Source: a virus (Duplodnaviria; Caudoviricetes). Taken from it: DNA of 64,000 bases. Position 1 is the first letter of the stretch, and each line of letters begins with the position of its first letter. The notes below the pieces were generated by a model that saw nothing but the letters and a program-made list of their open reading frames with translations, was not told the DNA's origin and ran no database searches. The DNA lies in IMG/VR virus record IMGVR_UViG_3300021400_000126, positions 1-64,000 of that record, one strand, 5' to 3'. The translations under genes were made by a program, and so were the position numbers. Below are positions 37,282 through 61,421 of this stretch, piece by piece.

Positions 37282-37381
37282 AAGAAAATAAAAATTTTCT
37301 TCTTTTCTTTAAAAAAATGCTTGACAAAATTCAAATCATCGGTTATAATAAAGACAGATAAAAGAAAGGGAGGTAAACCAA

Positions 37382-37534
37382 ATGAAAAAGACAAGAGACG
37401 AAATGCTTACAGATATCATCAGAAAATGGGGATTTGAGAATGCGGCGACTATCACCTTCGCAACTCTCATGGACGACAGTAAGATTTCTGAAAGAGCCTT
37501 ATACGAAGCCTACAGAGGATTCATGAGCCTGTAG
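37382..37534 (+). CDS. 50-aa early protein (paralog of 38728..38880)
   Basis: Promoter at 37321, GGAGG RBS; MKKTRDEMLTDIIRKWGFE; ends TAG. Confidence 0.75.
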   Translation: MKKTRDEMLTDIIRKWGFENAATITFATLMDDSKISERALYEAYRGFMSL

Positions 37535-37575
37535 GCTCTTTTTTTATTGTCGGGCCGGCTGCGCACGGGGCAGCC

Positions 37576-37755
37576 GGTTAACTGCAACTAACTTGGGTTC
37601 GGCTTTTCTAACTTGAGTTAGTTAAAACTAATCTGAGTTAGATCCTTCCCAAAATGGTTAGTCATAACTAATCCCAATTAACCATAACTAACCTCAGTTA
37701 GTTATAGCTAATTAAAGTTTGTCTTATTTAACTCAAGTTAGTTATGTCTATATCA
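37576..37755. repeat. nine tandem 20-bp units, each with a GTTAG-N6-CTAAC-like palindrome
   Basis: Exact 20-bp period from 37576; arms conserved, N6 spacers differ. Confidence 0.85.
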
Positions 37756-37885
37756 AAATTGACTAGTTAAAAAATTACCCTTCAAACTGGACAAAAATTT
37801 ACCCTTTGACAACAATTTTTTGCATGGTACAATTTATTGCCATAGTGTATAATAAGGACAATTAAAGAAAGGGAGGACCGGATCG

Positions 37886-38353
37886 ATGAAAAAAATTGAA
37901 GCTGAAATCAGAATTAACTACACATTTGACAATAACCGCAAAGGTGCTAAATATACTTTGAATGGTCTTAATTGGATGAATCACGGTGAATTTGCCGAAA
38001 TTGTCACTAAAAACATCTTAGGTTTTGAATCTGTTAAAGATGCTAATACAGCTTTTGATAAAGGCTCTGACATCCCCGAAATCAAGGCTTCTGTAAAATC
38101 TAGCAAAGCCAGTTTAACAAGCATGAAACTTGCTGATACTTTTGAAGAAAGTATGAATAAATACTTCAAAAGAACACATTCAGAAATTTTCATCTATACA
38201 GTAATCATTGATGAAAATGCTACTCTTTACATGATGAATGAAAAAGAATTTAGACTTTTCATGATGAATTTTAGTAGCCTTAATGAAAGAAAGGTTATCC
38301 GCTTTAAAGCCACAAGCGGAAAAATGATAAAATTTCTTGAGAGTCTTGCTTAA
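37886..38353 (+). CDS. hypothetical early protein, possible PD-(D/E)XK-like fold (distant paralog of 39288)
   Basis: NHGEFAE...KDANTAFDKGSD...SVK versus NRGEIFE...KDNIPFTDDGD...QIK. Confidence 0.65.
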   Translation: MKKIEAEIRINYTFDNNRKGAKYTLNGLNWMNHGEFAEIVTKNILGFESVKDANTAFDKGSDIPEIKASVKSSKASLTSMKLADTFEESMNKYFKRTHSEIFIYTVIIDENATLYMMNEKEFRLFMMNFSSLNERKVIRFKATSGKMIKFLESLA

Positions 38354-38727: not shown

Positions 38728-38880
38728 ATGACAAAGACTAGAGATGAGATGCTTACAAACATCATTAGAAAATGGGGATTCGAGCACAACTTCACAATCG
38801 ACTTCGCGGTTGCTATGGAGGACGCCCACTTCACAGACAAGATGCTCACAGACTTATATAGAGGATTAATGGACTTATAA
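38728..38880 (+). CDS. 50-aa early protein (paralog of 37382..37534)
   Basis: MTKTRDEMLTNIIRKWGFE; ends TAA. Confidence 0.75.
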   Translation: MTKTRDEMLTNIIRKWGFEHNFTIDFAVAMEDAHFTDKMLTDLYRGLMDL

Positions 38881-38959: not shown

Positions 38960-39184
38960 ATAGGCAAATTATACAAATTTACACCCCAATTCTTTCCCAA
39001 AATTCTCTGTTTTGCACAAAGACCAATAAAAAAATCAACCAATTTTTTTTGTAAAAACTGCACAAAAACATTCAGCTTTATTGTGCAAAATTTTACCTCA
39101 TTTTTTGTTGATTTTTCACAAAAGAATTCCAGTTTCTTTGTGCACATTGACAGTCCGCAAAATTTCCTTGTGCAAATTATACAA
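38960..39184. promoter_or_regulatory. cluster of degenerate 17-bp TTGTGCA-N3-TGCACAA sites
   Basis: Sites at 38960, 39003, 39049, 39081, 39105, 39138, 39168 in a non-coding gap. Confidence 0.6.
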
Positions 39185-39287: not shown

Positions 39288-39746
39288 ATGACAAACACAG
39301 TATTATTCGCACATCTGATCGAGGGATATAACAAGTTAGCTTTCACTCACAACTACATTTATGGCTTCTGTTTCCAGAACATGGTCTATATGGTCAAGGC
39401 TACCGCCGAAGATATGCCTTTCGTTCTGAAACTTGACAAGGCAAGCCGTGGGGCTGGATATGCATTAAGGTTTAAGCCTAACAAGGCTCAGAAAACCTTC
39501 CTTCTTGCCAAAGGTGCTACCGCTATATGCTCCAAGGAATTCTTCGAAGCAACTGTAAAAGAAAGCAAATATAATAGGGGTGAAATCTTCGAAAAGATGG
39601 TCACTGAATTTTATGGTCAGGTTTGGGAAAAGGATAATATTCCTTTCACAGATGACGGTGACCTTACAGTTGACGGTGTAGCATATCAGATTAAATTTGA
39701 AAAAGCTACATTCACAAATGAGAAATCCCTTGCAAGGATGATGTAG
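39288..39746 (+). CDS. hypothetical early protein, possible PD-(D/E)XK-like fold
   Basis: Promoter at 39228, AAGGAG RBS; TAG stop lies in the loop of an 11-bp hairpin. Confidence 0.75.
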   Translation: MTNTVLFAHLIEGYNKLAFTHNYIYGFCFQNMVYMVKATAEDMPFVLKLDKASRGAGYALRFKPNKAQKTFLLAKGATAICSKEFFEATVKESKYNRGEIFEKMVTEFYGQVWEKDNIPFTDDGDLTVDGVAYQIKFEKATFTNEKSLARMM

Positions 39747-40595: not shown

Positions 40596-40940
40596 ATGAC
40601 AAAAAGAGAAATGTTTGCTGAGATTCGTAAGGTTGTTGCTGATAATGCTGAGATGGTAGCTTTTATCGACCATGAAGTAGAGCTGTTGAACCGTAAGTCT
40701 GGCGGTCAGCGGAAACCTACTAAGACTCAGTTAGAAAATGCTGAGTTTAAGGCTGAGATTGTTGCTTTCTTAGGTGAGGTTGGAACTCCTCACACCATCA
40801 AGGAGATTCAGGCGAATGTCCTTAACATCGCAAATCTCACCAATCAGAGAGTAACTCACATGCTCACTGATTTGGTTAAGGATGGAGTTTTAAATAAGGA
40901 GTATGTAAAGAGAACTCCTTACTATTACATTGCACAGTAG
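40596..40940 (+). CDS. winged-helix DNA-binding protein, MTKREMFAEIR family copy 1
   Basis: GAGGT RBS; C-terminal TIKEI...TNQRVTHMLTDLVKDG.L.K wHTH pattern. Confidence 0.8.
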   Translation: MTKREMFAEIRKVVADNAEMVAFIDHEVELLNRKSGGQRKPTKTQLENAEFKAEIVAFLGEVGTPHTIKEIQANVLNIANLTNQRVTHMLTDLVKDGVLNKEYVKRTPYYYIAQ

Positions 40941-44406: not shown

Positions 44407-44760
44407 ATGACAAAGAGAGAAATGTTCGCAGAGATTCGTAAGGTAGTTATCGACAACGCAGAAATGGTAGCCTTCATTGACCACGAGGTTGAGTTACTGA
44501 ACCGCAAGAGCGGTGGAACTCGCAAGCCTACCAAGACTCAGCTTGAAAACGCACAGTTTAAGGCTGATATCCTCGCCGCTCTCGCTGAGGTTGGCAAGCC
44601 TGTAACCATTAAGGAACTGTGCGAGGTCTGCCCCACTGTCGCAGGTCTGACTAATCAGCGTATTACTCACATGCTGACTGACCTCCGCAAGGGCGGAGAG
44701 GTCACTCGGGAGTACATCAAGAGGGTTGCTTACTTCACGGTAGGCAACGAGGGAGAGTAA
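44407..44760 (+). CDS. winged-helix protein, MTKREMFAEIR family copy 2
   Basis: Near-identical N-terminus to 40596 and 45124. Confidence 0.8.
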   Translation: MTKREMFAEIRKVVIDNAEMVAFIDHEVELLNRKSGGTRKPTKTQLENAQFKADILAALAEVGKPVTIKELCEVCPTVAGLTNQRITHMLTDLRKGGEVTREYIKRVAYFTVGNEGE

Positions 44761-45123: not shown

Positions 45124-45465
45124 ATGACTAAGAGAGAAATGTTTGCTGAGATTCGTGCTATCGTTGTTGATAATGCTGAGATGGTTGCTTTTATTGACCA
45201 TGAGATTGAGTTACTCAATCGTAAGAGCAACGGTAAGAGAAAGCCTACAAAGAATCAGCTTGAAAATACTGCTTTTAAGGCTGACATTATCGCTCACCTT
45301 GCGGAGATTGGTACTCCTAAAACTATCAAGGAACTTCAGGCTGAAGTTGATGGTCTTGGCGAACTGACCAATCAGAGAGTCGCTAGGATGCTCACTGACC
45401 TTGTAAAGGAAGGTACTCTTAATAAGGAATACGTAAAGAGAGTTCCTTACTACTTCGCAGCTTAG
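45124..45465 (+). CDS. winged-helix protein, MTKREMFAEIR family copy 3
   Basis: As above; ends TAG TAA. Confidence 0.8.
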   Translation: MTKREMFAEIRAIVVDNAEMVAFIDHEIELLNRKSNGKRKPTKNQLENTAFKADIIAHLAEIGTPKTIKELQAEVDGLGELTNQRVARMLTDLVKEGTLNKEYVKRVPYYFAA

Positions 45466-48421: not shown

Positions 48422-48781
48422 ATGACAAAAATGACTTATGTACAGGCTATTGATTTTGCAGTTGAGATGATTCAGAACGGCGAAGCTAACTTCAACGGCT
48501 TTACGGCTTCGGAGTACATTGAGAAGCTCGATGCTCTCAAGGCTCAGTTGGCGAAGCGTGCGGTTCGCAAGCCTTCCAAGAATCAGCAGGCTAATGAGGG
48601 TGTAAAGAATGATATCCTTGATATCCTCTATGCTAACGAGGGTCTGCGTTGCGGTGATATTGCTGAGCCTCTTGGTATCAGCGGTCAGAAGTGTTCTGCT
48701 CTGCTTCGTCAGCTTGTAGATGCTGGCTTGGTTGAGAAGTATACTGAGAAGCGTGTTACTTACTTCAAGAGGGTTGCCTAG
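48422..48781 (+). CDS. winged-helix protein, diverged member of the same family
   Basis: RKPSKNQ..NE..K.DIL...CGDIA...SGQKCSALLRQLV..G.V.K; leader AAAGAAAGAAATGAGGTATGT shared with 40596. Confidence 0.78.
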   Translation: MTKMTYVQAIDFAVEMIQNGEANFNGFTASEYIEKLDALKAQLAKRAVRKPSKNQQANEGVKNDILDILYANEGLRCGDIAEPLGISGQKCSALLRQLVDAGLVEKYTEKRVTYFKRVA

Positions 48782-61031: not shown

Positions 61032-61421
61032 ATGGAAAATACAGTAAAAAAGACAAAGGCTATGTATTTTGCAGAGTTAAAAGATATGGTAATGGAAGCA
61101 GAGGAAATTACAGATGAGCTTAAGGATGAATTAGTTGATTTCCTTGATAAGCAGGTCGAGGCTATTGAAAAAAGAAAAGCGGCAGCTGCCGCAAGAGCAG
61201 AAAAGAAGAAAGCAGAATCTGACGCTCTTACAGATGCAATTTTTGCCGTTATGACTGAAGAGCTTATGACAGCAGATGAAATTATGGACGCCCTTGAGGA
61301 TGAAACCGCCACAAAGAATAAGGTTACTGCAAGATTAACTAAGTTAATTAACGCAGAAAAGGTTGTAAAAGAGACTATTAAAGTAGATGGTAAAAGGAGA
61401 ATGGCTTATAAGTTAGCCTAA
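61032..61421 (+). CDS. winged-helix protein distantly related to the MTKREMFAEIR family
   Basis: TKAMYFAEL...LVDFLDKQVE.I..R...MTADEI...KVTARLTKLI...V.K. Confidence 0.7.
   Translation: MENTVKKTKAMYFAELKDMVMEAEEITDELKDELVDFLDKQVEAIEKRKAAAAARAEKKKAESDALTDAIFAVMTEELMTADEIMDALEDETATKNKVTARLTKLINAEKVVKETIKVDGKRRMAYKLA

Follow-up and report, generated by a model that had tools for sequence, protein, structure and literature searches.

A phased array of nine GTTAG-N6-CTAAC units in a 133-kb gut or rumen phage, a candidate docking strip for a host DtxR-family repressor

Genomic setting

The window, i.e. the whole stretch of 64,000 nucleotides analysed here, comprises the opening 64 kb of a virus record in IMG/VR (IMGVR_UViG_3300021400_000126) that is complete at 133 kb and has direct terminal repeats. 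The genome, referred to as G000, is that of a gut or rumen phage and has a length of 133,306 bp. In its early gene region, 37.5 kb from the contig ends, a non-coding array of palindromes occupies most of a 351-bp gap that is free of open reading frames (ORFs). The features of the locus are as follows.

37382..37534, + strand: 50-aa early gene upstream of the array, an ORF with a Shine-Dalgarno sequence
37525..37548, + strand: intrinsic terminator of the 50-aa gene (stem 37525-37538, then a T run)
37555..37577, no strand: GC-rich inverted repeat CCGGCTGC-N7-GCAGCCGG at the cassette junction, read from the sequence
37577..37752, no strand: nine-unit GTTAG-N6-CTAAC array, 16-bp palindromes at a 20-bp period
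37806..37833, + strand: predicted sigma-70 promoter (TTGACA, 16 nt, TACAAT, with TG), near-consensus (11/12), serving the downstream gene
37886..38353, + strand: 155-aa early gene downstream of the array, whose Atlas feature neighbours are named restriction endonuclease family

The 50-aa early gene has a paralogue at 38728-38880 and belongs to no Pfam or PHROG family. The only match of the window to GenBank phage DNA falls in this gene; it is weak, with 84 nt at 79.5% identity to the Enterococcus phages EfsSzw-1 and PEF1 (blastn), and beyond it megablast and blastn found no close relatives of the window among GenBank phages. The final base of the GC-rich inverted repeat is the first base of unit 1, and a GC-rich patch directly precedes the arrays of two other viral loci (L039 and L008) as well.

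On the other side, the -35 box of the predicted promoter is located 53 bp past the array end. About 88 nt separate the array end from the likely transcription start, and neither the core promoter nor the UP-element region reaches into the array. At 37769-37813 the sequence AAAAATT(T)ACCCTT occurs twice, with about 24 bp between the copies and the second adjoining the -35 box; it may be a site for another factor.

The 155-aa protein has no Pfam or PHROG match and is probably restriction-endonuclease-like, as is probably a second early protein of about 150 aa (39288-39746). In relatives of the phage, genes of the 37886 and 39288 types are each located behind a GTTAG array; in this phage the 39288 gene sits behind an irregular TTGTGCA-type tract (38960-39184). 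By synteny, a GTTAG array lies upstream of the 155-aa gene family in L005, L027 and L029 as well, making 4/4 phages that carry the family; genes of a 152-aa family follow an array in at least seven loci. Pfam and PHROG revealed no replication or partition family among the ten ORFs around the array. Genes for NrdD and for an Fe-S activase of the NrdG type are present in the phage.

Array units and statistics

A position-by-position count confirmed nine GTTAG-N6-CTAAC units at an exact 20-bp period, as given by the sequence-only reading that drew attention to the array. The start reported there, 37576, places the array correctly, but this position is a flanking base; the G of GTTAG in unit 1 is at 37577, and the following units start at 37597, 37617, 37637, 37657, 37677, 37697, 37717 and 37737. 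In this order the arms match at 9, 9, 9, 7, 9, 8, 9, 8 and 8 of 10 positions, no unit being perfect. The full TTAG-N6-CTAA core quoted earlier is present at 37617, 37657 and 37697; this core of the DtxR/IdeR one-dimer site is matched at 8/8 positions in these three units and at 7/8 in four more.

Over all nine units in phase, 76 of the 90 arm positions match. No other place in the 133,306-bp genome scores above 42 (mean 24.3, sd 3.9), and the maximum scores in shuffled genomes (n=20) range from 41 to 46; the array is present once in the genome. Spacers differ among all nine units while the phase is still exact, and because of these differences Tandem Repeats Finder misses most of the units and reports only the last 2.5.

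A coding role was rejected, as no ORF of at least 40 aa runs across the array, all frames being closed because TAG and TAA sit inside the arms. An RNA role was likewise dropped, because a terminator precedes the array and a promoter follows it; Rfam delivered only chance miRNA-like matches far below threshold for positions 37300-38000. The earlier suggestion that bound dimers would lie nearly on one face of the DNA holds for neighbouring dimers and fails beyond them, because 20 bp corresponds to about 1.9 helical turns.

Relation to the iron box

The attribution of the TTAG-N6-CTAA core to DtxR/IdeR boxes agrees with the published one-dimer IdeR site TTAGGNNNNCCTAA, i.e. TTAG-N6-CTAA, in which one IdeR monomer reads one CCTAA quintet (PMC8464063). 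The site is also given as TTAGG-N4-CCTAA, and the phage unit fits this form (PMC8464063). Like the IdeR/DtxR iron box, which is used at iron-uptake promoters, the phage unit presents inverted (N)CTAA quintets as TTAG-N6-CTAA, each of which would be read by one winged-helix monomer. The classical 19-bp iron box, TTAGGTTAG(G/C)CTAACCTAA (PMC1382209), holds four quintets within 19 bp, so arranged that two dimer sites overlap with a 5-bp offset on opposite DNA faces, whereas the phage array lacks that layout and has nine separate sites, one every 20 bp; no GTTAG-N1-CTAAC core was found in it. The inner flanks are G/C in the classical box and T/A in the phage units.

By the minimal IdeR rule, under which a quintet needs T in third place and C in first or second (PMC8464063), units 3, 5, 7 and 9 are competent in both arms, units 1, 2, 4 and 6 in a single arm, and unit 8 in neither; the rule stems from an actinobacterial IdeR and may not be that of the phage host. 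Because the units are degenerate, with none at 10/10 and four with both arms competent by this rule, the strip may bind weakly.

The two-unit operator of bacteria

Bacterial genomes, one per species, were scanned for two perfect units at 20 bp, which delivered at least 120 stretches. The taxa among the matches listed are Clostridia, Gastranaerophilales, Treponema, Actinomycetota, Succinivibrionaceae, Fibrobacter and others, and almost all of the matches listed consist of exactly two units, rarely of three or four. FeoA/FeoB are encoded downstream of the pair in 41 of the 120 matches listed, with the gene start at a median distance of 22 nt (clustering and Pfam). Genes for DtxR-family regulators (PF01325 and PF02742) occur in 23 of the 120 matches listed, and Pfam-confirmed iron-type ABC transporter genes adjoin the pairs in other matches listed. 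The check at metal-uptake promoters that had been proposed for the motif thus finds its two-unit form directly upstream of at least one of these gene types (feoAB, DtxR-family or iron ABC) in 81 of the 120 bacterial loci listed; it covered bacteria across many phyla. A TTGACA box is located right beside several pairs among the matches listed, consistent with an operator over the -10 and start region.

The regulators adjoining the pairs are two-domain proteins of 120-140 aa with MntR and DR2539 of D. radiodurans as nearest solved relatives. They carry a Cys-x-x-Glu-His motif, which resembles the primary metal site of DtxR. In high-GC genomes G/C stands next to the arms (the TTAGG/CCTAA form), in low-GC genomes T/A; the phage units have T/A inner flanks, as in the low-GC bacterial operators. 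Because of these flanks and of the match to the IdeR site, the array unit is classified, on sequence grounds, as a low-GC DtxR-family site for one dimer, and the tandem pair at 20 bp as a predicted natural operator form of DtxR-family regulators.

The bacterial feoAB/dtxR operators and the phage array are identical in arms, N6 spacer, N4 linker and 20-bp phase. They differ in that the bacterial operators overlap the promoter and hold two units, whereas the phage array has nine (up to about 30 in relatives) and lies outside any promoter. Host-type genomes contain only 8-17 perfect units in total. In the Christensenellales chromosome behind L079, about a dozen perfect units occur within 50 kb (1.80-1.85 Mb), with pairs spaced 20-24 bp, probably a metal-uptake island under the same regulator.

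Distribution among viruses

IMG/VR was searched for two units at a 20-bp period, with the pattern read backwards as control; 76 viral loci were found with the pattern and 0 with the control. Uninterrupted chains of at least four units occur in 33 of the 76. The longest of these has 19 units, and the largest arrays extend over about 30 unit positions. Array length varies widely among phages, with chains of 5 to about 30 units. Long chains keep almost exclusively to the 20-bp period, pair-spacing frequencies from the variable-gap scan being rough and restricted to the matches listed. Viral arrays are always intergenic, and several are located at contig ends. Early-gene families are common to this phage and most array-bearing contigs; near-complete relatives carry one or two arrays each, with the motif otherwise at background counts.

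Across 316 distinct phage units the arms hold 1.0-1.7 bits per position, the spacers and linkers 0.1-0.5 bits, which indicates selection on arms and phase and not on the whole repeat. A promoter-like site was found inside 0 of 27 arrays. An outward near-consensus promoter is located 45-215 bp from one array end in 16 of the 27; the other 11 lack an outward promoter within 250 bp. The promoters near arrays match the consensus at 10-12 of 12 positions (11 in this phage).

A complete 42.7-kb virus (L065:68-191) opens with six GTTAGC-N4-(G/A)CTAAC units directly after a GC-rich patch, five at 22-bp spacing and one at 20 bp. In L125:3391-3546, on a phage fragment that was binned together with a genome of Oscillospiraceae, seven consecutive units have the identical spacer GTTAGTTTATCCTAAC, which points to a recent tandem expansion.

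A second lineage consists of complete phages of 13-15 kb with inverted terminal repeats (ITRs) and a DNA polymerase B of the protein-primed type. These carry three units per terminal repeat at the 20-bp period, as in the following sets.

L031:1-80: three-unit ITR set
L031:12990-13069: three-unit ITR set
L035:41-100: three-unit ITR set

With the first unit beginning at 17 nt, the units occupy the range of 17-73 nt from the genome ends and are located beyond a terminator-like hairpin, outside any transcription unit. ITR phages and G000-like phages have almost no protein families in common (one two-member cluster), none of them DNA-binding. The arrays are thus carried by at least two unrelated lineages, the large G000-like phages and the 13-15 kb ITR phages. 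Only 4 'bacterial' loci among the 120 matches listed have chains of at least four units, and all of them are phage fragments, namely of ITR-type phages binned into metagenome-assembled genomes.

Candidate binding proteins

No DtxR homologue was found in the 43 phage records checked. The DtxR dimerisation domain is absent from 38 array-bearing viral records, nine of which are at least 90% complete, and no DtxR-type winged helix was detected in the ITR phages (4 records checked). The only DtxR-like match in G000 is a sub-threshold one of a winged-helix protein to the DtxR N-terminal domain (genome 125975-126352; HTH_27 in Pfam). A phage-encoded DtxR was rejected on these results, i.e. the sub-threshold match in G000 and none in the 38 and 4 other records. 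The protein in question belongs to a set of winged-helix paralogues of 113-129 aa.

40596-40940: winged-helix paralogue
44407-44760: winged-helix paralogue
45124-45465: winged-helix paralogue
48422-48781: winged-helix paralogue
61032-61421: winged-helix paralogue
genome 125975-126352: winged-helix paralogue

Members of this family have a helical N-terminus and a C-terminal winged helix, with weak matches to MarR and HTH_24; the family is common across the lineage, with several paralogues per phage. The nuclease-like proteins encoded at 37886 and 39288 were rejected as binders, being barely similar to each other (E = 0.33) and located behind different palindromes in G000. The 5-N6-5 layout had also raised boxes of restriction-modification controllers (C-proteins) and CRP-type sites; this reading was dropped because the bacterial context is feoAB and dtxR.

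As no DtxR homologue is present in the phage records checked, the binder is most likely the metal-dependent DtxR-family repressor of the host, and a host protein is the simplest explanation for a unit that is common to unrelated phage lineages and bacterial operators. Docking of such a repressor on the array is considered highly probable. The earlier proposal of a landing strip for a metal-dependent repressor gains support in that the array unit equals that of the feoAB/dtxR operators, the binding itself being what we infer from this identity.

Possible function of the array

In the explanation that we favour, the host DtxR/IdeR-family repressor would dock on the strip, each 16-bp unit taking one dimer, and metal-loaded dimers would fill it side by side. 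Replication of the phage DNA would multiply the sites and draw the repressor off the chromosome; host iron uptake would then be derepressed and could supply phage enzymes that depend on Fe, NrdG among them. A phage that encodes NrdD and an NrdG-type activase would benefit from additional iron. As a whole this repressor sink is proposed tentatively, with chances slightly short of even. It is suggested by the occurrence of pairs in bacterial chromosomes versus 5 to about 30 units in phages, and one phage array rivals a whole host regulon, since host-type genomes hold only 8-17 perfect units. The array of seven identical units, read as a recent amplification, is also counted in its favour.

The same bacterial-operator evidence would equally suit a local iron switch, in which the metal status of the cell, through occupancy of the sites by the host repressor, would set the activity of the adjacent early cassette or, in the ITR phages, of replication. 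The position of the array upstream of an early promoter, kept before the 155-aa gene family in 4/4 phages that carry it, also fits local regulation, as do the arrays upstream of the 152-aa family in at least seven loci, and the outward near-consensus promoters 45-215 bp from one end of 16/27 arrays. Activators of the DtxR family are known to use several upstream sites, as IdeR does at bfrB and MntR at mneP. Precedents for local control are the Spo0A boxes on phi29 and Nf (PMC2731898) and the CtrA boxes (PMC9437464). Against such a switch, the likely start is about 88 nt away from the array end, with core promoter and UP element free of units; promoters at 10-12/12 consensus, with 11/12 for the one at 37806, should need no activator; and thirty units are far beyond what a switch needs. 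The units of the ITR phages, moreover, are located beyond a terminator-like hairpin outside the transcription units. The repressor sink is preferred over the switch because the array lies outside the core promoter and its length varies widely among phages, and because 0/27 arrays hold a promoter-like site, the array-promoter distance varies and 11 arrays lack an outward promoter within 250 bp. Local regulation is held to be unlikely, though it is the most probable of the alternatives.

A binder encoded by the phage itself would make the array a set of origin iterons, a centromere or an autoregulatory site. Plasmid centromeres and iterons do resemble arrays with a 20-bp period, and several winged-helix paralogues are encoded in the same early region of G000-like phages; candidates would be those at 40596, 44407, 45124, 48422 and genome 125975, or the downstream nuclease-like protein. 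However, Pfam and PHROG detected no initiator, ParA, ParM, ParR or ParB family in the ten ORFs by the array, the GC skew has no turn at the array position, and in G000 homologous downstream genes follow arrays of another palindrome (38960-39184). Both unit and spacing recur in ITR phages without such a protein family and at bacterial feoAB promoters. A phage-encoded binder is considered quite improbable.

Equally doubtful, if not more so, is a structural role, in which the docked host DtxR-family protein would organise or protect the DNA, mark its ends, or help replication or packaging. The units of the small phages, 17-73 nt from the ends where protein-primed replication starts, and the several arrays at contig ends would be in line with it; but contig ends at repeats can be assembly breaks, and in G000, whose contig ends are a direct terminal repeat, the array lies 37.5 kb away inside the early region. 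That the array is a functionless remnant of tandem duplication, as the recent duplication of identical units in some arrays might suggest, is hardly credible, because neutral decay would erode all positions alike, whereas arms and spacers/linkers differ in information across the 316 units (1.0-1.7 vs 0.1-0.5 bits) and the phase is exact over nine units with all spacers different.

Comparison with known systems

Several systems resemble the proposed repressor sink in part. The DtxR operator of the corynephage beta tox gene, listed among the DtxR boxes (PMC1382209), is also a host iron-repressor site on phage DNA, but it is a single classical 19-bp box at one promoter for one gene and not an array. 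Lytic phages with several sites for a host global regulator include phi29 and Nf, virulent phages of Bacillus with Spo0A boxes (PMC2731898), and alphaproteobacterial phages with CtrA boxes (PMC9437464). These boxes let the phage read the host state; they occur dispersed, at promoters and close to genome ends, serve other regulators and are not phased tandem arrays. In this comparison, the units of the present array match a bacterial chromosomal DtxR-family operator, and an overlap with an early promoter or origin of the phi29 type is not seen in this phage, where the array stops 53 bp before the -35 box; the ITR phages differ from it in that their units adjoin the genome ends. LexA boxes are another case of host-regulator boxes on phage DNA. 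Synthetic tandem decoy arrays, engineered in yeast to sequester a transcription factor, are similar in that their repeated sites compete with target promoters for a limited factor (PMC3322331). A full-text literature search for phages with DtxR-type arrays, or with operator sponges of natural origin, returned no report. Single or scattered host-regulator boxes on phage DNA are known; phased multi-unit arrays of a one-dimer DtxR site did not turn up in this search.

In gut and rumen phages, a one-dimer iron-repressor site has been multiplied into phased arrays (5 to about 30 units), while bacteria have pairs only. Should the arrays titrate the repressor, DNA alone would enable phages to reprogram the metal uptake of their hosts, an auxiliary function invisible to gene-based annotation. 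More generally, though with somewhat less confidence than for the iron-repressor case itself, phages may use 'sponge' DNA, i.e. phased arrays of host operators that, amplified by replication, strip a global repressor and switch on its regulon without a protein. For the bacteria, the comparison defines a widespread tandem operator of two-domain DtxR-family regulators at feoAB promoters in many phyla, which can serve for predictions of iron regulons in gut bacteria not yet cultured and possibly of phage-host links.

G000 may carry a panel of such arrays for several host regulators. Two further palindrome tracts of the same early region were inspected and are much less regular than the GTTAG array.
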